Part shown: piece by piece, positions 9,534 to 62,948 of the stretch
How the letters are laid out: every line of letters begins with the position of its first letter
Position numbering within the stretch: position 1 is the stretch's first letter
NCBI GenBank assembly: GCA_025449695.1
Contig: JANWIW010000027.1
Span: forward strand, 283-64,282
Direction: 5' to 3'
DNA: 64,000 bases
DNA from: Minisyncoccota bacterium
GTDB taxonomy: Bacteria; Patescibacteriota; Minisyncoccia; UBA6257; 2-01-FULL-56-20
Made by a program: the position numbers and the translations under genes
The notes under the pieces: generated by a model
What the model was told of the DNA's origin: nothing
Seen by the model: the letters and a program-made list of their open reading frames with translations, nothing else
Databases searched by the model: none

Positions 9534-10559
<1,026 letters not shown>

Positions 10560-18037: not shown

Positions 18038-19774
<1,737 letters not shown>

Positions 19775-19888
19775 TCGCTTCGCGACGTGGTAGCGTTGTA
19801 CTCGTTGGATCGCCGCGCGCCCGTAAGGGCGCGCGGCTTGTTGTAGGCGTTCGAATGCGCTTGCCGCTACCGTTATTATTCTTTTCAG

Positions 19889-23327: not shown

Positions 23328-23882
23328 ATGACGACGATCGGAATAGTGATCGCAGTAATAGTAGTGGTGGCCCTCTGGCTTATCGCGGTCTTCAACGGCC
23401 TGGTTCGCGCGCGTATGCGCGCGCGGGAGGCGATGTCGGACATCGACGTACAGACCAAGCGACGCTACGACCTCATCCCAAACTTGGTAGAGACTGTTAA
23501 AGGCTACGCGAAGCACGAGAGCGGCGTCTTCGAGCGGGTGACCGCGGCCCGCACCGCCGCCATGCAGGCGCCGATGGGCAATGCGAAGCTGGAGGCGGAG
23601 AACGCGCTTAGCGGGACCCTGAAATCGCTCTTTGCGGTGGCGGAGAACTACCCAGACCTCAAGGCGAACCAGAACTTCCTGCATCTCCAGCAGGAGCTCA
23701 CCGACACCGAGAACAAGATCCAGGCGTCGCGCCGCTTCTATAACTCGAATGTCATGGAGTTGAACACGAAGATCGAGACCTTCCCCACGAATCTCATCGC
23801 CGGCCCTTTCGGTTTCTCCAAGATGGAATTCTTCGAGGTTCAGAATGACGTTGAGCGCGCCCCGGTGCAGGTGAAGTTCTAG
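23328..23882 (+). CDS. lemA: LemA family protein
   Basis: RRYDLIPNLVETVKGYA, AVAENYPDLKAN and RRFYN motifs. Confidence 0.96.
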   Translation: MTTIGIVIAVIVVVALWLIAVFNGLVRARMRAREAMSDIDVQTKRRYDLIPNLVETVKGYAKHESGVFERVTAARTAAMQAPMGNAKLEAENALSGTLKSLFAVAENYPDLKANQNFLHLQQELTDTENKIQASRRFYNSNVMELNTKIETFPTNLIAGPFGFSKMEFFEVQNDVERAPVQVKF

Positions 23883-23890
23883 TGCACAAG

Positions 23891-23926
23891 CGTTGTAGTT
23901 GTTCTAATCGTTCTACTCGTTGTAGC
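23891..23926. repeat. Left 9-mer repeat arm flanking the four-helix-bundle gene
   Basis: cgttgtagt tgttctaat cgttctact cgttgtagc. Confidence 0.85.
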
Positions 23927-23934
23927 GTGGATGA

Positions 23935-24321
23935 GTGGCAAAGCTGCTCTTCACCCGTTATAGATTTGAGGATCTGGAAGTATGGCAAGTCGCCCAATCT
24001 ATTGTGACGGAAACTTATAAACTCACGCGCAGCTTCCCGAGTGACGAGCGTTTTGGATTGACAAGTCAATTCAGAAGGGCCGCGATATCTATCTCTCTAA
24101 ACATCGCCGAAGGAAGCGGCCAGCAGAGTCCGAAAGGCTTTGCGAACTATGTAAATCGAGCAAAGGGCTCGTTGTTGGAATGCGTCGCGTGCGCTAGAAT
24201 TGCGGAACAGGAAGACTTCTCGCGCAACGACGATATGCGCACACTCGTCGTTTTGCTTGAGAAGGAGTATTTCAAACTGATTGCTTTAGAAAAGGCGCTA
24301 CGGAGCAGGATTCACGATTAA
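23935..24321 (+). CDS. Four-helix-bundle protein (23S rRNA IVS protein / Avd-like family)
   Basis: FEDLEVWQ, FPSDERFGLTSQFRRAAISISLNIAEG and AKGSLLE motifs; more AT-rich than its neighbours. Confidence 0.93.
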   Translation: MAKLLFTRYRFEDLEVWQVAQSIVTETYKLTRSFPSDERFGLTSQFRRAAISISLNIAEGSGQQSPKGFANYVNRAKGSLLECVACARIAEQEDFSRNDDMRTLVVLLEKEYFKLIALEKALRSRIHD

Positions 24322-24352
24322 AACATTCGCATCGGTTACAACGATTAGAACA
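24316..24352. repeat. Right (inverted) 9-mer repeat arm
   Basis: gattaaaac attcgcatc ggttacaac gattagaac a; 13 nt perfectly complementary to the left arm. Confidence 0.8.
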
Positions 24353-24358
24353 CTGCCC

Positions 24359-25261
24359 ATGGCCACCATCTACTCCCACAAGGACGCCAACGTACGCAAG
24401 ACCTGGTTCTTGTTTACAGGCTTCCTCGGCGTCGTCATCGCGCTCGGCTGGGTAATCTCCCAGTACTACGGCGATCCGTCCATCCTCCTCTTCGCGGTGA
24501 TCTTCTCGACGGTCATGAGCCTCGTGAGCTACTGGTATTCCGACAAGATCGTCCTCTCCATGGCCCACGCCAAGGAAGTGGACCTCAAGGCCAACCCGGA
24601 GCTCTACCGGATCGTGGAAAACCTCGCCATCACCGCCGGACTGCCCATGCCAAAGCTTTATATAGTACCCGAGGCGCAATTGAACGCCTTCGCGACCGGC
24701 AGGGACCCGAAGCATGCGGTCGTCGCCGTGACCGAAGGCCTGCTCGCGAAGCTCGATAAGACGGAGCTGGAGGGCGTCCTTGCCCATGAGATGTCGCACA
24801 TAGGGAACCGCGACATTCTGGTCAACACCATGGCGGTCATCTTGGTGGGTTTCATTTCCCTCGTCGCCGACATGTTCATGCGCTCCATCTTTTGGGGTTC
24901 CGGCAACCGCGACCGGGAGGGCGGGGGAGGAGCCATCGCCATCATCGGCCTCGCGCTCGCGATCCTCGCGCCCATCTCGGCCACGCTCCTCCAGCTGGCC
25001 ATTTCCCGCCGGCGCGAATCCCTGGCGGACGCCTCCGGCGCCCTCCTCACCCGTTACCCTCGGGGGCTTGCCTCTGCCCTGGAGAAAATCGCCCGGGACG
25101 TTACGCCCATGCGCCGCGCCCGGAATACCACCGCCCACCTTTGGATAGACGACCCTTTCACCGGCCAGCAGCGTACCGCCTGGTGGCACAAGGCATTCAT
25201 GACCCATCCTCCCATCGAGGAGCGCATCCGCGCATTGAGGGAAATGAGCTTGGGTGGATGA
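24359..25261 (+). CDS. htpX: M48 zinc metalloprotease HtpX
   Basis: NAFATGR, HEMSH, SRRRESLAD and THPPIEERI motifs; follows lemA. Confidence 0.95.
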   Translation: MATIYSHKDANVRKTWFLFTGFLGVVIALGWVISQYYGDPSILLFAVIFSTVMSLVSYWYSDKIVLSMAHAKEVDLKANPELYRIVENLAITAGLPMPKLYIVPEAQLNAFATGRDPKHAVVAVTEGLLAKLDKTELEGVLAHEMSHIGNRDILVNTMAVILVGFISLVADMFMRSIFWGSGNRDREGGGGAIAIIGLALAILAPISATLLQLAISRRRESLADASGALLTRYPRGLASALEKIARDVTPMRRARNTTAHLWIDDPFTGQQRTAWWHKAFMTHPPIEERIRALREMSLGG

Positions 25262-27457: not shown

Positions 27458-28591
27458 ATGATTGATGAGTGGCAGGAAGCCGAGTCTTTTGAAGGAAGCA
27501 CGCTTCATAGTGCGCTGGGAGGGCCCGCGGAGCATCCCGAGGCGAGCGCCAAAAGCGAGTTCGCAGAGACGATATCCCTTCTCAGGTTTTTGAACGAAGG
27601 GGCTCTTCGGGGCGTACTGACACAGTTTCTGACTCAGTTTCCCGGAAGTAGGGAAAGCATGGAGGCAGTCATAAAGAACGTGGCGCGACGCAAGATAGAG
27701 CAAAGGGATCCCGACGAGATAGACGCAATTCTTGATCAGGCTGACAAGAATGGAGCGAATCCCGAGGCGCTGGTACAAATGCTTATGCAGAGTATCTCGC
27801 TGGGTAATAGCAAATTGCGTAGGGACTGGAGTGTTTTCACGGGCGCGACCGCAAATGTACGTTTCGCGTTGTCACACGTAGAGAACGCGGAAGCCGACGT
27901 CGAGAGTGAGCTGAGAGCCCTCGCAAAGGAGAGGTCGGACCACACGGCCAGTATCACCTTTATGAAAAGACTTATACTGAAGAAGCTGCCGGACAGGGCT
28001 AAGGATATCAAAAGATTCTTCGAAGAATCTGATCTTGCGGCAGCGGAGGTTGATTACCGCGCGAGGATTTTCTTCTCTCATGGCCGCGCGGATCTCCATG
28101 ACGCTGGTCCGAAAGGAAAGCGGATGGAGGAGATACTTTCGACGCTGAAGCATGACAAGAAGGTGGAGGTGTGGCAGGACGTACAGGGCATACAAACAGC
28201 GGATGATTTTCAGGAGCGTATCTTAAACGCTATCATCCATTCCGACCGGGCAGTGGTAATGCTCGGCAACGCCTCCATTCGCAGCGAGTGGGTCTTCAGG
28301 GAAATACAGGCCTTTCAGCTTTATGGAATCGATATCGTGCCAATCCTTGTAGAGGATATTGTCCCGCCCGACCAAGAGAAAGAACCTGAAGCATGGGCCC
28401 GCTATCAGGAGATCCGAGAGCGTATAGGCGCACTCAATTATATTGACGTGCGCAAATTAGAACCCTTGCCCTCTGCCGGGAAGGAAAAAGCTTCGGAATC
28501 GGCGGCATTGCGCAAGAAGATCTCGGGCGATTTCGAGAGACTGCTCCCTTTGAACGATCAGGAGCGTTTCGATCGATTCTATAAAGTCTGA
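27458..28591 (+). CDS. TIR-domain protein with an uncharacterised N-terminal region
   Basis: IFFSHGRAD, VWQD, SIRSEWVFREI and IVPILVE match the TIR_2 pattern including the catalytic Glu. Confidence 0.85.
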   Translation: MIDEWQEAESFEGSTLHSALGGPAEHPEASAKSEFAETISLLRFLNEGALRGVLTQFLTQFPGSRESMEAVIKNVARRKIEQRDPDEIDAILDQADKNGANPEALVQMLMQSISLGNSKLRRDWSVFTGATANVRFALSHVENAEADVESELRALAKERSDHTASITFMKRLILKKLPDRAKDIKRFFEESDLAAAEVDYRARIFFSHGRADLHDAGPKGKRMEEILSTLKHDKKVEVWQDVQGIQTADDFQERILNAIIHSDRAVVMLGNASIRSEWVFREIQAFQLYGIDIVPILVEDIVPPDQEKEPEAWARYQEIRERIGALNYIDVRKLEPLPSAGKEKASESAALRKKISGDFERLLPLNDQERFDRFYKV

Positions 28592-32362: not shown

Positions 32363-34150
32363 ATGGGTCCGGAGACCCCTTCGACGGCTTCAATAAGTTC
32401 ACCGCAAGCAAGCTCAGGGCAAGACCGGGTATGCGCGAACTGCAAGGAACGGTTCACACTTGATCCGGATGATTTTTCTTTTTATCAAAAAATAGAGGTC
32501 CCGGCGCCTAGGTTCTGTCCCGCCTGCCGCAATCAGCGCCGGAGAGCATGGCGGAACGACATCTCTTTCTATAAAAGACAGTGCGATCTTTGCAAGAAGA
32601 ACATTGTCTCCCTCTACTCGCCGGACAAGACCCTTACCGTCTATTGCCAGAAATGCTGGTGGTCGGACGCTTGGGACCCGAAAGCTTACGGGCGAGATTT
32701 CGATTTCTCGCGGCCGTTTTTCGAGCAGTACCGCGAGCTTCAGAACGTGGTGCCCCTGATCGCGCTCATGAACGACGATGGGATAGGGAGCATCAACTGC
32801 GAATACACGCAGAACGTATCCTCGGCAAAGAACTGCTACATGGTGTCCTCTTCCTGGAAGAACGAGGAGTGCGCGTACGACATGCAAATATCCGGTCCGG
32901 AGCTTCGCGAGGTGTTCGATTCCCTGGATATCTTCCAGAAGTGCGAGATGGTGTACGACAGCATCTTTCTGGAGAGCTGTTACCGCGTACGAAACTGCTA
33001 CCGATCGTTCGCGCTCGTTGATTGCGCGTTTTGCCTGGAGTGCCGGGATTGCCAGGACTGCTTCATGTGCGTAGGGCTTCGCCGCAAGCGCTACTGTTTC
33101 AAGAACAAGCAGTATACGAAAGAGGAGTACGAGAAGATACTGGCGGAGTACAGGTTAGATACTTGGGACGGCAGGGAGCGCGCCCGGAAAGAATTCCAGG
33201 AGTTCATCCTGGAATATCCCCGCGAGTTCGCTATCCTCCGGAACTGCGTGAACTGTACGGGCGATCAGATGTTCAACTGCAAGAATATGAAGTATTCCTT
33301 CAATGTGCGGGGAAGCGAGGATACGGCATATTTCGAGAACGGTAATATCATCAAGACAGGATACGACATGGCGACAGGCGGCGAGAACGAAGAATGCTAC
33401 GAGGGCATCACTCCCGACAACGACTATCGGGCATTATTCACCATCTTCTCCTGGAAGAACTCGCATGCTGAGTATTGCGAGAATTGCCACTCTGGACAGA
33501 ATCTTTTCGGATGCTCCAGCCTGCGCGGCGCAAAGTACTGCATCTTGAACAAGGAATACACCAAAGAGGATTATCACGAGCTCCGCATCAGAATCGTCGA
33601 GCATATGAAGAAGACCGGGGAATATGGAGAGTTCTTCCCGGCGAAGCTCTCCCATTTTTGTTATAACGAGACCACTGCCCAGATGTATTTCCCGATCACC
33701 AAAGAAGAAGCACTGGCCAAAGGATATCGCTGGCAGGATAGCTTCCAGTTCACGACCGGCAAAGAGACGATCAAGGTAGAAGCTCTGCCCCAGACCATCG
33801 CGGAGGTGGGTGATGGCATTATGAAAGAGGTGCTTGCTTGTACTAACTGCAAACGTAATTACATCATCGTCCATCAGGAGCTCCAATTCTATCGGCGAAT
33901 GAACCTGCCTTTGCCGCGCCAATGTTTCTACTGCCGCAATGACGAGCGAATGCGTCTTCGGAACCCGTTCCGCCTTTGGCAGAGGCAGTGTGACTGCAAG
34001 GGCGCAGGATCGACTAACGGCATATATGCGAACGGAGAACCCCACTTCCACGGGGAAAAGGCATGTCCCAACACGTTCCAAACCCCCTATGCTCCCGAGC
34101 GCCCGGAGATAGTGTATTGTGAAGAATGCTATCAAGCCGAAGTCGTATGA
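32363..34150 (+). CDS. Cys-rich zinc-ribbon/repeat protein, paralog 1
   Basis: CxxC..P..CPxCRxxRR, CWWSD.WDP, DFSRPFFEQ, CxxC repeats, YGEFFP and YCEECYQ motifs. Confidence 0.9.
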   Translation: MGPETPSTASISSPQASSGQDRVCANCKERFTLDPDDFSFYQKIEVPAPRFCPACRNQRRRAWRNDISFYKRQCDLCKKNIVSLYSPDKTLTVYCQKCWWSDAWDPKAYGRDFDFSRPFFEQYRELQNVVPLIALMNDDGIGSINCEYTQNVSSAKNCYMVSSSWKNEECAYDMQISGPELREVFDSLDIFQKCEMVYDSIFLESCYRVRNCYRSFALVDCAFCLECRDCQDCFMCVGLRRKRYCFKNKQYTKEEYEKILAEYRLDTWDGRERARKEFQEFILEYPREFAILRNCVNCTGDQMFNCKNMKYSFNVRGSEDTAYFENGNIIKTGYDMATGGENEECYEGITPDNDYRALFTIFSWKNSHAEYCENCHSGQNLFGCSSLRGAKYCILNKEYTKEDYHELRIRIVEHMKKTGEYGEFFPAKLSHFCYNETTAQMYFPITKEEALAKGYRWQDSFQFTTGKETIKVEALPQTIAEVGDGIMKEVLACTNCKRNYIIVHQELQFYRRMNLPLPRQCFYCRNDERMRLRNPFRLWQRQCDCKGAGSTNGIYANGEPHFHGEKACPNTFQTPYAPERPEIVYCEECYQAEVV

Positions 34151-34167
34151 CCGAAACGCGCACTTGC
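34089..34167 (+). repeat. Junction direct repeat, copy 1
   Basis: 73/79 nt identical to 35840-35918; last 35 nt identical. Confidence 0.9.
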
Positions 34168-35901
34168 GGTCATTGCCGGAGATCCTTTGTCGTGGAGGCG
34201 GACGATTTCTCGTTCTACGAAAAACTCAACGTGCCGCCTCCGACCTTCTGTCCGGATTGTCGCAAGCAGCGGCGGTTGGCATGGCGCAATGATAGTACGC
34301 TTTACTCAAGAGCTTGCGGTCTTTGCGATAAGAACACGATATCCATCTACGCGCCAAACGGCCCCATGCAGATCGTCTATTGCCAGAAGTGCTGGTGGTC
34401 CGACAAATGGGACCCCAAAGAGTACGGCGCAGAATACGATTTCTCCAAAACTTTCTTCGAGCAGTTTGCGGAACTTCAGCGGCGCGTTCCCGCACTCGCG
34501 ATGACCAATGACGACGGCATTAGCAGTGTCAATTCTGAATATACCCAGGATTTTGCGCGAGCAAAGAACTGCTACATGTGTTTCATCGGCTGGAAGGTGG
34601 AGGACTGCCTGTACGATTTCTACATCATAGGAGGTAAAGAGATAGTAGACGCGATCAACAGCATGGGGGAATGCGAGTACACTTATGAAACCGTCTATAC
34701 GGAGAAGTGCTATCAGAGCAGATATATCTACTCCTCGGTTTCCGTCTCCGACAGCGCTTTTTGTTATGATTGCAGGGACTGCACGGATTGTTTTATGTGC
34801 GTCGGTTTGCGGCACAAGCGGTATTGTTTCAAGAACAAGCAATACACCAAAGAAGAATACGAGAAAATACTTGCCGATTATCGCTTGGACACATACACCG
34901 GCGTGGAGCGTGCGAAGAAGGAGTTCGCGGACGTATTTTTCAGCAAGCCCAGGCGGTTCGCCATGCTCCGTAACTGCTTCAACTGCACTGGTGATGCGCT
35001 GATCAACGGCAAGAACTCAAAATACTGCTTTAACGTGCAGCGCCCCGAAGAAACCCGGTGGGTGGAGAATGGCGATACGCCGAAAGACAGCTACGATTTG
35101 AGCGTGGGAGGCGAGTTGCAGCAATGTTATGAAGGAATCACTCCGGACCATTCGTACCAAAGCCGCTTTGCCATATTTTCCTGGAGGAATACAGATGTTT
35201 CTTATGTCGACGGCTGTCATGCATCCGAACATCTTTTTGGATGTGCGGGCCTTAAGAAGGGACAGTACTGCATTTTCAACAGGCAATATCCGAAAGAGGA
35301 ATACGAGTCATTGGTAAAAAAGATAAAAGCGCAGATGGATGGTATGCCCTACGCCGACCGGCAAGGCATAAGCTACAAGTTTGGGGAGTTCTTCCCTGCG
35401 GAACTCTCCTATTTCCGATACAACGAGACCGTTGCACAGGAATCCTTCCCTCTTACCAAGGAGAAGGCCTCTGCGGAGGGATTGGATTGGCAGGAGCAAT
35501 TCCAGGTCACGATCGGGAAGGAGACGATCGATATCGCTAAGGTCCCCGATGCGATCGCCGACGTACCCGACTCCATAGTGGACGAGGTGCTTGCATGCGC
35601 AGGATGCGCGAGAAATTATCGCATAGTGCCTGCCGAGCTCAAGTTCTATCGCAGGATGAGGATCCCCCTTCCCCGGCGTTGTTTTTACTGTCGTCAGGCA
35701 GACCGGCTGAAATTCAAGAACCCCCATAAACTGTGGCACAGGCAGTGCCAATGCGCAGGAGAAAAGGAAAGCGGTTTCAAGAACACAGCAGCTCATTTCC
35801 ATGGCAAGAATTCTTGCCCCAATGAATTCGAAACCCCTTATGCTCCCGAGAGCCCCGAGATAGTGTATTGTGAACAGTGTTACCAAGCCGAAGTCGTATG
35901 A
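34147..35901 (+). CDS. Cys-rich zinc-ribbon/repeat protein, paralog 2
   Basis: Same motifs; ATGA overlap with paralog 1. Confidence 0.9.
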   Translation: MTETRTCGHCRRSFVVEADDFSFYEKLNVPPPTFCPDCRKQRRLAWRNDSTLYSRACGLCDKNTISIYAPNGPMQIVYCQKCWWSDKWDPKEYGAEYDFSKTFFEQFAELQRRVPALAMTNDDGISSVNSEYTQDFARAKNCYMCFIGWKVEDCLYDFYIIGGKEIVDAINSMGECEYTYETVYTEKCYQSRYIYSSVSVSDSAFCYDCRDCTDCFMCVGLRHKRYCFKNKQYTKEEYEKILADYRLDTYTGVERAKKEFADVFFSKPRRFAMLRNCFNCTGDALINGKNSKYCFNVQRPEETRWVENGDTPKDSYDLSVGGELQQCYEGITPDHSYQSRFAIFSWRNTDVSYVDGCHASEHLFGCAGLKKGQYCIFNRQYPKEEYESLVKKIKAQMDGMPYADRQGISYKFGEFFPAELSYFRYNETVAQESFPLTKEKASAEGLDWQEQFQVTIGKETIDIAKVPDAIADVPDSIVDEVLACAGCARNYRIVPAELKFYRRMRIPLPRRCFYCRQADRLKFKNPHKLWHRQCQCAGEKESGFKNTAAHFHGKNSCPNEFETPYAPESPEIVYCEQCYQAEVV

Positions 35902-35918
35902 CCGAAACGCGCACTTGC
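35840..35918 (+). repeat. Junction direct repeat, copy 2
   Basis: atgctcccgagagccccgagatagtgtattgtga...gaagtcgtatgaccgaaacgcgcacttgc. Confidence 0.9.
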
Positions 35919-37580
35919 CAGAACTGCAGCCAAGGGTTCTCCATAGAGGACGAGGACTTCAATTTCTACAAGAAGATAGAAGTGCCGCCGCCGACTCTCT
36001 GCCCCGACTGCCGCCAACAGCGTCGTATGGCTCATCGAGACAAAAACTATTTTCTAAGAAACTGCGACAAGTGCGGCAAAAGCTCCATTTCCATTTGGCA
36101 CCCCGACATTAAAGGCTATCTTTTTTATTGCAACGATTGCTGGTGGAAGGATGATTGGGATGCCTTCGAGTACGGGCGGGATTTCGACTTCTCTCGTCCG
36201 TTCTTCGAGCAATTCAACGAGCTGTACAAAGCCGTGCCGAAGCATATCTCGAACGCGATGCTTAATATGAAAAACTCCGACTACTGCATCAATGCCTCGC
36301 GGAGCAAAGACTGTTATATGGCTGACGAGATAGACGAATCAGAGCGTTGCGCCTACGGATACTGCGTCCAGAACTGCAAAGACTGCACAGATTGCCTCTA
36401 TGTCAACGAATGCGAGATAGGCTATGAGCTGGTGAAGTGCGATAACAACTATAAGGTTTTCTATGCCTACGATTCACACGCTTGTAATAACTCCGCGTTC
36501 CTGGCTCATTGTCGGGGCGTTTCAAATTCGCTGTTTTGCACCAATAAATACAACGTCACGAATTACTTGTTCAATGAACCCTCCACCGCAGAGGAAGTGA
36601 AGAAGGCCTGGGACGAAATCTTCTGTGGCAAAAACGGCAAACTCCAGGAGGCGCTCGCCAAGTACCAGGAGATCCTCAAGTCCTCCATCTCTCGTCCGCT
36701 TATCGGTACGAACGTCAAGAACTCATCGGGCAATTTTCTGGTTAACGTCCAGAATTGCAAAGACTGTTATTCGATAGACAACAGTATCAACTGTAAATAC
36801 TGCACGGACATCCATCATTCCAAAGACAGCATGGACGTGCATATTTACATCAGCGAACTGAGCTATGAGAGCCTTCACGCCTGGGGTTATAAACAGCTAT
36901 TCTCGCATCTCCTTTGGAACTGCTCCGATGCTACCTACGCCGACGAATGCCATAACAGCCAAGACCTCTTCGCCTGTTGCGGCCTCAAGAAAAAACAGTT
37001 CTGTATCCTCAACAAGCCTTATAGCAAGGAAGAATATCTGGAGTTGAAAGAAAAGATCATTGCCCACATGAAGCAGACCGGCGAGTACGGCGAATACTTT
37101 CCGGTTTCCATGTCGCCGCACGGCTACAACCACACCTTCGCGCAAGAGTTCTATCCGATGACCGAAGGAGAAGTAAAACAGCGCGGCTGGCAATGGCTTC
37201 CTGAAATCAACATCAGGGACAAGTACAAAGACAAAGTGATCACCCAGCTTCCTGATGATATCGCGGAAACCACACCCGCAATCTGTAATGAGATATTCGA
37301 GTGCGAAGCGAGTGGCAGGTTCTATCGGATAATTCCCGATGAGTACCAGTTTTATAAGAAGCACGGCTTGCCCCTGCCGCGTTTGTCGTCTCAAGAGCGC
37401 GACCATCTGCGTTGGGAGAAAACGAAGCCACGCCATCTATGGGACAGGGAATGTGCCTGTGCGAAGCAGTCCCACTTCCACGGGGCCAGCTCTTGCTCCA
37501 ATGCATTTAGGACCACACATGCTCCCGAGAGCCCCGAGATAGTGTATTGTGAGCAGTGTTACCAAGCTGAAGTCGTATGA
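35898..37580 (+). CDS. Cys-rich zinc-ribbon/repeat protein, paralog 3
   Basis: Same motifs; ATGA overlap with paralog 2. Confidence 0.9.
   Translation: MTETRTCQNCSQGFSIEDEDFNFYKKIEVPPPTLCPDCRQQRRMAHRDKNYFLRNCDKCGKSSISIWHPDIKGYLFYCNDCWWKDDWDAFEYGRDFDFSRPFFEQFNELYKAVPKHISNAMLNMKNSDYCINASRSKDCYMADEIDESERCAYGYCVQNCKDCTDCLYVNECEIGYELVKCDNNYKVFYAYDSHACNNSAFLAHCRGVSNSLFCTNKYNVTNYLFNEPSTAEEVKKAWDEIFCGKNGKLQEALAKYQEILKSSISRPLIGTNVKNSSGNFLVNVQNCKDCYSIDNSINCKYCTDIHHSKDSMDVHIYISELSYESLHAWGYKQLFSHLLWNCSDATYADECHNSQDLFACCGLKKKQFCILNKPYSKEEYLELKEKIIAHMKQTGEYGEYFPVSMSPHGYNHTFAQEFYPMTEGEVKQRGWQWLPEINIRDKYKDKVITQLPDDIAETTPAICNEIFECEASGRFYRIIPDEYQFYKKHGLPLPRLSSQERDHLRWEKTKPRHLWDRECACAKQSHFHGASSCSNAFRTTHAPESPEIVYCEQCYQAEVV
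37519..37580 (+). repeat. Junction direct repeat, copy 3
   Basis: 60/62 nt identical to 35840-35901. Confidence 0.9.
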
Positions 37581-39286
37581 GCAACGAAACCAAAACCTGC
37601 CAAAACTGCAAGAAGGAGTTCGTTATCGAACCGGACAACGCCGCGTTCTGCGCGCACATGCAGGTGCCGCTCCCGACCTGGTGCCCGCCCTGCCGCCGCT
37701 TGCGGCGCATGGGCTGGACCGGCTACAGGATCCTCTATAAAAGGAAATGCGCCTACTCGGGGGAGGATATCATCACCTTCTACCATCCCAACGCTCCGTA
37801 TGTGATCTACAAGCAGGACATATGGTGGAGCGACAAGTGGGACCCCAAGAGCTACGGACGGGACTACGATTTCTCCAAGCCGTTCTTCCAGCAGTTCGAC
37901 GAGCTTCTGCGGTCGGTGCCCCTGCCCTCGCTCCATACGGAGTACACGACTCTCGTGAACAGCGACTACTGCAATGCCGTAGGGGGCCTGAAGAACTGCT
38001 ATCTGGTCTTCCAGTCCGGGGACGGGGCCTCGCATATAGGCCACGAGAATACGGCATACATGCACATGGTGGACGACACGAAGGACAGCATGGACATGTC
38101 CTTCTCCTCGAACTGCGAGCTTTGCTACGAGTGCGTGCGCTGCTTTGGATGCTTCCGGGCGCGCTGGTCCGCGAACTGCGACGAATGCCATAACGTCGCG
38201 TTTTGCCAGAGCTGCATTGGCTGTTCCGACTGCGTCGGCTGCGTGAATTTAAAGAACAAGTCGTATTGCATCTTCAACGAGCAGTATTCCAAGGAAGAGT
38301 ACGAGCGCAAGCTGAAGGAGCTCGATCTGGGATCCCGCGAAGGATTGGACAGGTTCGCGGTGGAATTCGCCAAGTTCGCGGAAAAGATGCCCCATCGCAT
38401 GTTCTACGGCCGGCACAACACTTCTACTTCCGGCGACTACATCTCCAATTCCAAGAACGTCCACGATTCCTACATCGTCCATGGCGCAGAGAACGTGCGC
38501 TACGGGCAGCTGCTGAGCGCGCCCGCGGCCAACGCCTACGACTACACGCTCTTCGGCACGTTTGCGGAGTGGATCTACGAATGCGCGTGGAATGGCTTGA
38601 GCAGCAACACGCTCAAGTTCTGCTTCTGGAACTACCACGCCCATCATCTTGATTACTCCCTCGGCTGCCACGGGTCGGAGAACCTGTTCGGCTGCGTGGG
38701 GGTTCGCAAGGGCTCCTATTGCATCTTGAACAAGCAATATTCCAGGGAGGAGTATCAGGAACTCGTCGCGGATATAAAACAGCAGATGGCGGAAATGCCC
38801 TACGTGGACCGCCTGGGCCGGAACTACTCGTACGGGGAGTTCTTCCCGCCGGAGATATCGCCCTGGACCTTCAACGAGTCTATGGCGTCCCTGGGCTTCC
38901 TCCCTTTGTCCCGCGAGGAAGCCCTGGCGCAGGGGTTTAACTGGCGCGAGGATGATGGCCGCCAGTATCGGGAGCCGACCGCGCCGGTACCGGCAAGTAT
39001 CAAGGATGTTCCCGAAGATTTCTCCAAGGAGATACTGAAGTGCGAGTATTGCGGTAAGAACTACCAGATCATCCCCATGGAATTGGATTTCTATCGCCAG
39101 TGGGACGTTCCCATCCCTTTGCGCTGCCCCTTGTGCAGGGAGAAAGACAGGGTCGCCAGCCTGAACCCCATGGCCATCTACGACCGGGAGTGCATGAAGT
39201 GCGGCAAGTCCATTCAAACCTCCTACGCGCCAGAAAGGAAAGAGATTGTATATTGCGAGACCTGCTATCAAAACGAAGTTGCATAG
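37577..39286 (+). CDS. Cys-rich zinc-ribbon/repeat protein, paralog 4
   Basis: Same motifs; ATGA overlap with paralog 3. Confidence 0.9.
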   Translation: MSNETKTCQNCKKEFVIEPDNAAFCAHMQVPLPTWCPPCRRLRRMGWTGYRILYKRKCAYSGEDIITFYHPNAPYVIYKQDIWWSDKWDPKSYGRDYDFSKPFFQQFDELLRSVPLPSLHTEYTTLVNSDYCNAVGGLKNCYLVFQSGDGASHIGHENTAYMHMVDDTKDSMDMSFSSNCELCYECVRCFGCFRARWSANCDECHNVAFCQSCIGCSDCVGCVNLKNKSYCIFNEQYSKEEYERKLKELDLGSREGLDRFAVEFAKFAEKMPHRMFYGRHNTSTSGDYISNSKNVHDSYIVHGAENVRYGQLLSAPAANAYDYTLFGTFAEWIYECAWNGLSSNTLKFCFWNYHAHHLDYSLGCHGSENLFGCVGVRKGSYCILNKQYSREEYQELVADIKQQMAEMPYVDRLGRNYSYGEFFPPEISPWTFNESMASLGFLPLSREEALAQGFNWREDDGRQYREPTAPVPASIKDVPEDFSKEILKCEYCGKNYQIIPMELDFYRQWDVPIPLRCPLCREKDRVASLNPMAIYDRECMKCGKSIQTSYAPERKEIVYCETCYQNEVA

Positions 39287-49493: not shown

Positions 49494-49560
49494 CGTTCAA
49501 ATCGTTCTATCCGTTGTATCGTTCGCCTAGAACGGATTGAACGGTGAGAACGATTACAAC
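49494..49560. repeat. Inverted 9-mer tandem-repeat element (empty form) between infB and rbfA
   Basis: cgttcaaat cgttctatc cgttgtat cgttc then gcctagaac ggattgaac ggtgagaac gattacaac. Confidence 0.85.
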
Positions 49561-51086
49561 TTCTTCTCTTCGTCGAACACTAATAGATGGTCGCCTTTCT
49601 CGATCGTGATGGAGGCGCCGGCAAGCACGCCGCATTCGTAGCCCTCCGGCACGGAGGAAGTATCTTTCTTCTGGGCCTGGAGGTTCGTGACCCGGCCCTG
49701 GCCCACGATCTTGCCTTCGCCCTTGCCCTCCGCGCCTTCACTGCGTCCGTCCGAAGCCTGGGACGAAGAGGGAGCAGGGGAGAAGCGCATTATCTGGAAC
49801 GGAGCCTTCTTGAAGTTTCCGGAGACAACCCGGCCGCCCACCACCTGTTTGTCCAGCTTGGCCGAATTGAAGACCGCGAGGATCTCGAGCACTCCGGACG
49901 GGCCCGCGACCTGGAGCTCCTTCAGCTTCTTCTCGACCGCGATGATCAGGTCGTAAACGATGTCCGAACTCACGACCTCCGTGCCTTGAGCCTGGGCGAG
50001 GTTCCTGGCGGCCTTGTCCACGTTGCTCTTGAAGGCGACGATGAGGGCCTTGCCGGACACTGCGAGCTTCACGTCGTTCTCGCCCACATCTCCCACCCCT
50101 TCGGCAAGGAGCACGAGAGGCTGTTCCGCGCCGAGGGCATGCAATATCTGGGAGAGTACCTCCAGAGAACCCGCATCACCCGCCTTCAGGATGAGGTTCA
50201 GGGCATCTCCTTTGAGGGTAGGCATCTCCGCGCCGGCCACGGCGGTCTTGATCTGGGCGGTCTTGGCCTTCTCGCCGGTCGTGAAGGTCTCGCCCACCTG
50301 GGGCAGGGACTCCAGGCCGACGACGAGCGCCGGCGCGCCGGCCGGGACCTCGTTTGCCGCTTTGCCTAAGAAGTTCTCCAGCATCTTCGCCTTGCCTTTC
50401 GCGGTCGGGGTGGCGATGTCGTCGCCCCGGCGCAAGGTGCCCTCGCGCACGATGAGCGAGGCTTCCATGCCGCGGTTCTTGTTGGTGCGCGTCTCGAGGA
50501 TGAAGCCTTCCGCAGGAAGCGAGGGGTCGTAGCGCAGTTCCTCGAGTTCCGCCGCGAGGATCAGGAGGTCCAGCAGCTCGTTCACGCCCTCGCCGGTCTT
50601 CGAGGACACCGGCTGGTAGCTCGTGGAGCCGCCGTAACCCTCCAGGTAAACGCCGTTCGCGAGAAGGTCGTTCTTGACCCGGTCCACGTCCGCGCTCGGC
50701 TTGTCGATCTTCGTGAGAGCGACCACATAGGGCGTCTTGGCCTGCTCCAGGATCTGGATGGCTTCCTTGGTCTGCGGCTTCACCCCTTCTTCCGCAGCGA
50801 CCACGAGTACGGCCAGGTCGGCTGCGTCCGCTCCGCGGGAACGCATCTTGGTGAAGGCCTCGTGGCCGGGGGTATCTATGAAGGTAAGTTTCTTTGCCTG
50901 TGTTGAGCCCGTCGAAACGTGTTCGATCTCGTAAGCGCCGATGGCCTGGGTGATGCCGCCCGCTTCGCGTCCGGCGACGTTCGCCTTGCGGATGTAATCG
51001 AGGAGGGAGGTCTTGCCGTGGTCCACGTGGCCCATAACCACGATGACCGGCTGGCGCTCCTTCAAATTGTTGGGTTTGTCGGCCAT
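49554..51086 (-). CDS. infB: Translation initiation factor IF-2 (short form)
   Basis: [28 protein letters not shown] and ECG motifs. Confidence 0.97.
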
Positions 51087-62693: not shown

Positions 62694-62948
62694 ATGGCCA
62701 AAGAAAATTCCGCATTCATGAAGCCGATGAACATAAGCGCCGACCTCGCGGCCGTCATTGGCAAAGGTCCCATGCCGAGAGCGCAGGTCGTGAAGAAGCT
62801 CTGGGAGTACATCAAAAAGAATAACCTGCAGGACGCGAAGAATAAGCGGAACATCAATGCCGACGAGAACCTGAAGAAGGTCTTTGACGGCAAGGCGACG
62901 GTGAACATGTTCGAAATGACGAAGCTCGTCTCGAAGCATCTTTCCTAG
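62694..62948 (+). CDS. Stand-alone SWIB/MDM2-domain protein
   Basis: SADLAAVIG..PMPRAQVVKKLWEYIKKNNLQD..NKRNINAD..MFEMTK. Confidence 0.93.
   Translation: MAKENSAFMKPMNISADLAAVIGKGPMPRAQVVKKLWEYIKKNNLQDAKNKRNINADENLKKVFDGKATVNMFEMTKLVSKHLS

Follow-up and report, generated by a model that had tools for sequence, protein, structure and literature searches.

A gene of the four-helix-bundle family PF05635 and arrays of short tandem repeats are probably parts of one element in the patescibacterial genome studied here. Each protein clade is tied to a repeat word of its own, and in one lineage gene-less hairpins built from such a word sit in core operons. This is likely a widespread element class for which we found no published description; heptamer arms and intervening-sequence (IVS) genes are each known separately, and the mechanism proposed below is deduced from sequence comparison. 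To our knowledge, no function is established for the widespread PF05635 family, and we know of no explanation for the 7-9-nt repeat arrays catalogued in bacteria. The tie between the two suggests a short mobile element that can spread although it lacks its own transposase, and by which housekeeping proteins of reduced genomes acquire extra loops. Positions given without a contig refer to the window, i.e. the whole analysed stretch of 64,000 nt.

The lemA-htpX cassette and its gene-less relatives

The gene-bearing (filled) copy lies between a LemA-like gene (23328..23882, plus strand), which we take to be lemA, NCBIfam having returned only MamQ below its cut-off, and htpX (24359..25261, plus strand). 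The names htpX, groES, fcl, rbfA and infB are those of the best NCBIfam matches, some of them under the curated cut-off. The left arm (23891..23926, plus strand) consists of four tandem 9-mers of consensus YGTT(C/G)TARN that start at 23891, 23900, 23909 and 23918, and the last codons and stop of lemA (23875-23882) form a repeat-like unit in register with them. It is followed by the four-helix-bundle gene (23935..24321, plus strand, presumed GTG start), whose product of 128 aa (pI 8.6) matches PF05635 with 101.6 bits (cut-off 33.8) and TIGR02436 with 89.9 (cut-off 24). The inverted right arm (24317..24352, minus strand) has only two clean units, at 24337 and 24346, with degenerate ones reaching back to about 24317, and ends 6 nt before the htpX start. 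The initial annotation had described this locus as an AT-richer gene bracketed by 9-mer arms. Both parts hold, the right arm with just two clean units; the GC content of the ORF is 48.8%, compared with 58.9% and 62.3% in the two neighbours.

Like those of an rRNA IVS, the cassette termini are complementary and can pair into a stem that encloses the ORF. According to folding computations, the 23-nt arms are 83% complementary and their duplex (-28.7 kcal/mol) makes up about 0.5 of the ensemble, and the arm-arm pairs are not present in the minimum free energy (MFE) structure. An Rfam scan of the window yielded tRNAs only, and the cassette sits between two protein genes, not inside an rRNA gene. 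The protein gave profile matches to 2GSC (E 1e-30) and 2RLD, entries with five chains each, and its closest homologs, like the relatives of the genome, are Patescibacteria records, which suggests the same lineage here. Contigs from four soil DNA runs span the cassette region in short pieces only and have no bearing on whether alleles are filled or empty.

Three gene-less (empty) copies, without assigned strand, occur elsewhere in the window: at the junction of a GT2 glycosyltransferase gene and fcl (9534..9618, 4+4 units), between groES and groEL (18038..18124, 4+5 units) and between infB and rbfA (49494..49561, 3+4 units, the infB stop lying inside the first unit). They had already been noted as arm pairs in the initial annotation, and each of them indeed folds as a hairpin, with z-scores of -3.9, -5.0 and -3.2, respectively, relative to 200 dinucleotide shuffles. 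In addition, degenerate left-type half-arms surround a GC-rich hairpin 3' of groEL (19786..19856, plus strand), at which no right arm was found.

A matrix scan of the genome assembly containing the window (983 kb, 92.7% complete) identified 88 9-mer arms, compared with 0 and 1 in two shuffled versions. The arms form 48 clusters, among them 37 left-then-right pairs and not a single reversed one; the remaining 11 are unpaired or one-sided, two of these being the arms of the filled cassette. The genome-wide scan suggested in the initial annotation thus adds up to 37 gene-less pairs besides the filled copy, and neither the arms nor their pairing are due to chance. A search pattern for empty 9-mer hairpins had 48 matches in this genome; with the strict empty-hairpin pattern, 19 matches came from the genome collection and none from viral contigs.

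Based on gene calls from a simple, purpose-made codon model, 32 of the 37 empty pairs lie between co-directional genes. Occupancy is 32/646 for co-directional junctions and 5/291 for all others (p=0.018), in line with the earlier suggestion that operon junctions are targeted. Most of the 32 begin within 15 nt of a stop codon (24/32) and end within 15 nt of a start codon (23/32), and 14 of 23 have their stop codon in phase with the repeat, the unit itself containing TAR. Conserved genes are enriched at occupied junctions (50/70 versus 167/576), and a ribosomal-protein gene borders on 8 of the 32 co-directional sites (the tests were run on 20 of the 64 flanks, which had been picked by eye).

The 250 units represent 125 variants around a near-invariant GTT.TA core, a conservation to which the scoring matrix itself contributes, and an arm has two to five units (mode 4 in 70 arms), a count that depends on the score threshold. 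Variable positions are not adenine-specific. Slippage was rejected as the origin of the arrays because adjacent units (similarity 0.486) are no more alike than random pairs (0.475 +/- 0.011). Arms of the same element pair slightly better with each other than with foreign arms (-24.2 versus -22.3 kcal/mol, p=0.006), and only in 2 of 37 cases does an arm pair best with its own counterpart. No target duplication was apparent, the best flanking direct repeat being 2.9 nt versus 3.1 nt in permuted data (35 elements with fuzzy ends). The loops (0-84 nt) show no excess resemblance to the ORF (mean score 15.1, versus 14.2 when shuffled) and are unrelated to each other save for one trio with a common inner hairpin, so that no master copy was found, although age could have erased such identity. 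Taken together, the unit statistics exclude slippage and a recent master copy. The elements at C6:1889, C6:14426 and C36:76850 (G000) share a GC-rich inner hairpin, which suggests a second small repeat nested in loops. The only clear slippage event seen concerns a heptamer arm grown to about 13 perfect units (G000:C11:11021-11169).

Repeat words, protein clades and orthologous junctions

The genome contains at least five repeat words, the 9-mer being one. Inverted tandem arms enclose all five of its PF05635 genes, no two of which share a word; the four others have heptamers, all differing from the 9-mer. Where inverted arm pairs up to 800 nt apart were read by eye, these five were the only whole genes enclosed by one pair. 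Two of the five cassettes are antisense to their operon. Several words besides the 9-mer have empty copies as well, and the ACAGGTT word has empties, yet no cognate gene. Reversed arm order was never seen in any of the five word families tested. The word of the L002 family (G000:C7:32-92) resembles what we recall as the telomeric motif TTAGGG/TTTAGGG, which may be coincidence.

The association of arms with four-helix-bundle genes that the initial annotation had put forward, complete in this genome, extends to homologs: at loci with usable flanks, the inverted match was better than all of the locus's own controls in 61 of 77. Of 76 cassettes, 70 have a G-rich first arm, and in 82 of 101 with both neighbours called, the gene is co-oriented with them. 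Two PF05635 genes (L004 and L318) are broken by internal stops. Short or flank-truncated homologs had been dropped before counting. In a quick version of a tree of 135 proteins (133 columns, SH-aLRT only), 16 of the 17 proteins labelled as 9-mer fall into one clade (SH-aLRT 98), and the subclade with the cassette gene has 9-mer arms in 12 of 13 members. The label of L069 is an 8-mer false positive, and L347, inside the tight 9-mer clade, has a shifted word. As 14 of 16 loci of the 9-mer clade adjoin lemA and/or htpX and two lie elsewhere (the neighbours of these two recognized by eye), the filled copy is an old, occasionally relocated one, a long-standing resident of lemA-htpX across Patescibacteria rather than a fresh hop. 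At this particular junction, the coupling of word and protein may reflect co-inheritance and nothing more.

Arms of other words also occur within genes. At 15 places, distributed over ten genes, heptamer arms are part of the reading frame and are translated, the genes including those for UvrC, a class I tRNA ligase, TatD, MnmA, TsaD, LigA, UvrD and RsmA; no 9-mer arm is intragenic in this genome. One heptamer hairpin constitutes a clean 29-codon in-frame insertion that is missing from the ortholog of a sister species, and gene-less copies can therefore be gained directly. The in-frame arms in housekeeping proteins were recorded as L366-L375 (G000 contigs C6, C8, C15, C18, C23, C26 and C36); in TatD, MnmA and one membrane protein, left and right arm follow each other in the usual order within one gene, 120-490 nt apart, and the sister genome carries a related word of its own at some of these positions.

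The sister species belongs to the same genus; of its genome of about 800 kb, the analysis covered 781 kb (contigs C1-C73). At 28 of the 37 junctions a comparison was feasible; the 9-mer was present at none of the 28, 13 of which are at most 30 nt long. Since fcl was not found in the sister genome searched, the GT2-fcl junction was left out. The 9-mer burst is a lineage-specific gain relative to the sister species. Eleven of the sister's 30 elements could be mapped, and 9 of these 11 face an element in this genome, as opposed to 50 of 217 (p=6e-5); five of the facing elements oppose a different word, which is the 9-mer in two cases.

The initial annotation had anticipated filled, empty and absent alleles at orthologous sites. 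Among 29 relatives, the lemA-htpX junction is tight in 8, holds a gene-sized insert in 12 and a short one in 6, and is not comparable in 3. The gene-sized inserts include members of the same clade with 9-mer arms as well as a different four-helix-bundle gene with heptamer arms. At groES-groEL, 15 junctions are tight, 8 carry tandem-arm hairpins of other words, one is filled by a four-helix-bundle gene and 5 are of other kinds; at infB-rbfA, 17 are tight, 2 have tandem-arm hairpins and 10 are other, none being filled with a PF05635-family gene. Thus, tight, empty (with another word) and gene-filled forms coexist among relatives at the first two sites, whereas infB-rbfA has the tight and empty forms but not the filled one, and the polymorphism holds at genus-to-order distance, not at strain level. 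The same junctions are reused by other words and other passengers. In G018, the lemA-htpX junction (L093) harbours a PDDEXK_3 gene between repeat-like flanks, presumably of the GxxExxY-type nuclease family, and this gene could serve as a catalytic partner in other genomes.

Empty 9-mer hairpins were detected in 6 of 200 relatives. Three of these six are among the 8 genomes that have a close homolog, the other three among the 192 that have none (p=8e-4, kin genomes not being independent); with the restriction to homologs with verified 9-mer arms, the ratio is 3/4 versus 3/196. Two of the three genomes with empties but without a close homolog lack htpX in the assembly, and the third has another four-helix-bundle gene at that place. 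In G152, empties are present and lemA-htpX holds a different four-helix-bundle gene with heptamer arms, and in G071 they are present although no PF05635 match was found. Conversely, 3 of 10 genomes picked by protein gave no empty match. The link in trans between gene and empties is real but loose, because empties also occur without a close homolog, as in G071.

Proposals for the spread of the elements

With moderate confidence, we consider the elements a selfish hairpin family, in which a predicted pentameric, Avd-like ring would bind its own word and an enzyme acting in trans would copy the arms. The observed basis of this reading is the anatomy, the fixed arm order, the coupling of word and clade, the gain specific to one lineage, the reuse of junctions by other words and passengers, and the placement at stop codons. 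A core at a fixed period, a unit number close to that of the ring subunits and a clade-tied word would best be explained by a protein that binds its own arms.

It is rather unlikely that only the filled cassette moves and that each empty copy goes back to a gene-bearing insertion that lost its ORF. Such a history would suit the occurrence of the filled form at different loci, the two broken PF05635 genes and the finding of both filled and hairpin forms at groES-groEL among relatives. However, there are 37 empties and one gene, the loops are no more ORF-like than shuffles, and in UvrC, TatD, MnmA, TsaD, LigA, UvrD and RsmA, where in-frame arms reside, a full cassette would have been disruptive.

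We likewise regard it as improbable that the protein is a domesticated host post-transcriptional regulator that would bind the hairpins found in operons for ribosomal proteins and chaperones. Cores conserved between free spacers do resemble binding sites, conserved-gene junctions are enriched and ribosomal-protein genes are touched, and the lemA-htpX cassette persists in distant Patescibacteria; but the sites are missing from the sister species, one word replaces another at shared sites, a single genome can contain several words, and there are genes without sites and sites without genes.

The initial annotation had also raised the idea of an IVS acting at the mRNA level, with the ORF looped out by pairing of the arms. 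In such a model, selection would favour arm pairing in the transcript, and RNase III would cleave the paired arms. There is a precedent in rRNA: excerpts of PMC4990558 describe S23p IVSs of Coxiella and Leptospira with a PF05635 ORF between complementary termini, in Coxiella 23S rRNA with tandem heptamers before the S23p ORF and an RNase III cut in the terminal stem. The gene for RNase III (rnc) is present in this genome, most cassettes are co-oriented with their neighbours, and in L358 (G210:C123) a heptamer-armed four-helix-bundle gene interrupts the apparent 5' part of a 16S rRNA gene (a partial Rfam match below the gathering score). On the other hand, the sense strand folds better than the antisense strand in just 15 of 32 elements (p=0.19), with 62 versus 84 G-U pairs; hardly any arm has its own partner as its best one, the arm-arm pairs of the filled copy occupy about half of the ensemble and are missing from the MFE structure, two of five cassettes are antisense, and in-frame arms must be translated. 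Given the strand test, the two antisense cassettes and the translated arms, RNA excision is probably not the defining trait of the element; the claim is unsupported in this respect, and we consider the idea very unlikely. RNase III cutting of the hairpins may occur as a by-product. The RNase III gene at G000:C4:12639-13490 (L365) has an empty GAATCTG-word hairpin on either side.

A mutational, REP-like origin, with slippage and template switching at terminator-like spacers making the arrays and the gene as a bystander, is highly improbable and largely refuted by the unit, order and clade results: although heptamer arrays are common in bacteria (excerpts of PMC4692102 and PMC4679880) and own arms pair slightly better than foreign ones, adjacent units are no more similar than random pairs, five word families show not one case of reversed arm order, all five genes of the family are armed, the word tracks the clade, and no Y1 transposase was found in the genome.

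Returning to the selfish hairpin family, we detected neither a reverse transcriptase (RT, PF00078) nor a Y1 (HUH) transposase (PF01797) nor a PDDEXK_3 gene in the 92.7% complete genome, in agreement with the initial view of a transposase-free element. As the cassette itself encodes no catalyst, the copying enzyme must therefore be borrowed or lost. An RT was found in 9 of 13 genomes with empty 9-mers compared with a background of 100 in 200 relatives, which is no clear enrichment. About half of the relatives carry an RT of 330-380 aa (L362, L396-L400), and several of the loci viewed look DGR-like, with a small helical ORF beside the RT.

According to our proposal, a basic ring, pentameric by homology to 2GSC and Avd, would bind the three to five tandem units of an arm, which would explain the conserved cores with free spacers. 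Because the cassette is devoid of a catalytic gene, a borrowed enzyme would then write new copies. The likeliest candidate, tentative even if the rest of the proposal holds, would be a DGR-type RT with the ring in the part of Avd; host recombination would be the alternative. Finally, the hairpin would keep stop and start codon close together, and ribosomes that terminate there would melt the base of the hairpin and so make the following start accessible; judging from this geometry, copies may persist in core operons because the stop is kept near the start. In its most specific version, which we think improbable as a whole, the arms would not be copied from a master element; instead, the predicted ring, with a borrowed RT, would write them unit by unit. 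Its own word would be added in telomere fashion to each of the two 3' ends where a highly transcribed operon has broken, and rejoining would give the left-then-right order, at times with the gene or a different passenger trapped between the arms. Such unit-by-unit writing would explain the never-reversed polarity, the G-rich first arm and the near-independent units. It would also account for the missing target duplication and for old words being overwritten where a junction is reused.

Relation to known elements and further genes of the window

REP/BIME-RAYT sequences, MITEs and Rickettsia palindromic elements are short non-autonomous intergenic hairpins that occur in operons, show lineage-specific bursts and include in-frame coding insertions. 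The elements described here differ in that they consist of tandem units, that no Y1 transposase, target duplication or master consensus was found, and that the partner gene has no known catalytic activity.

With rRNA IVSs, they share the PF05635 protein, an ORF within complementary termini and the existence of ORF-bearing and ORF-less forms, the latter two being reported at the same rRNA sites for CPR inserts (10.1101/2024.02.27.582315, in excerpts). In contrast to these, they occupy mRNA junctions, have a 9-nt period, can be antisense and include 37 unlinked gene-less copies. The element thus appears to resemble an ORF-bearing IVS moved outside rRNA, supplemented by MITE-like empties.

The heptamers GGGAATC of Xanthomonas and TAACTGA of Beggiatoaceae form intergenic arrays by stop or start codons, with about four units preferred and, in Xcc, 70 cases of inverted pairs; they have been read as G-quadruplexes or regulator sites (PMC4692102, PMC4679880). 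Unlike here, they are not tied to four-helix-bundle genes or a mobile cassette in the relevant passages of these papers. Excerpts of PMC3936711 also describe separate parts of the design.

Avd is described as a positively charged pentameric barrel, similar to S23 proteins, and as the partner of an RT for which it binds an RNA stem-loop (10.1101/2023.10.23.563531, in excerpts). This likeness and the Pfam bAvd matches in 11 of 14 clade members favour the kinship with Avd claimed in the initial annotation, but the matches are weak (best E 1e-4); unlike in DGRs, no RT was found in this genome. A precedent for enzymatic synthesis of short tandem repeats in bacteria is the DRT10 RT (PMC12632851). 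DRT10 is an antiphage system that comes with an RT and an ncRNA of its own, and nothing comparable is linked to the cassette. On the features tested, the element lies outside the IVS, REP/RAYT, MITE and DGR families. Our literature search, which covered few subscription journals and no supplements, returned no published link between such arms and a PF05635 gene outside rRNA.

Apart from the elements, the window encodes a TIR-domain protein (27659-28591; PF13676, with a weak ThsB-like match), possibly the product of an antiphage gene, four tandem cysteine-rich paralogs almost without Pfam match (32363-39286) and a stand-alone SWIB/MDM2-domain protein (62694-62948).
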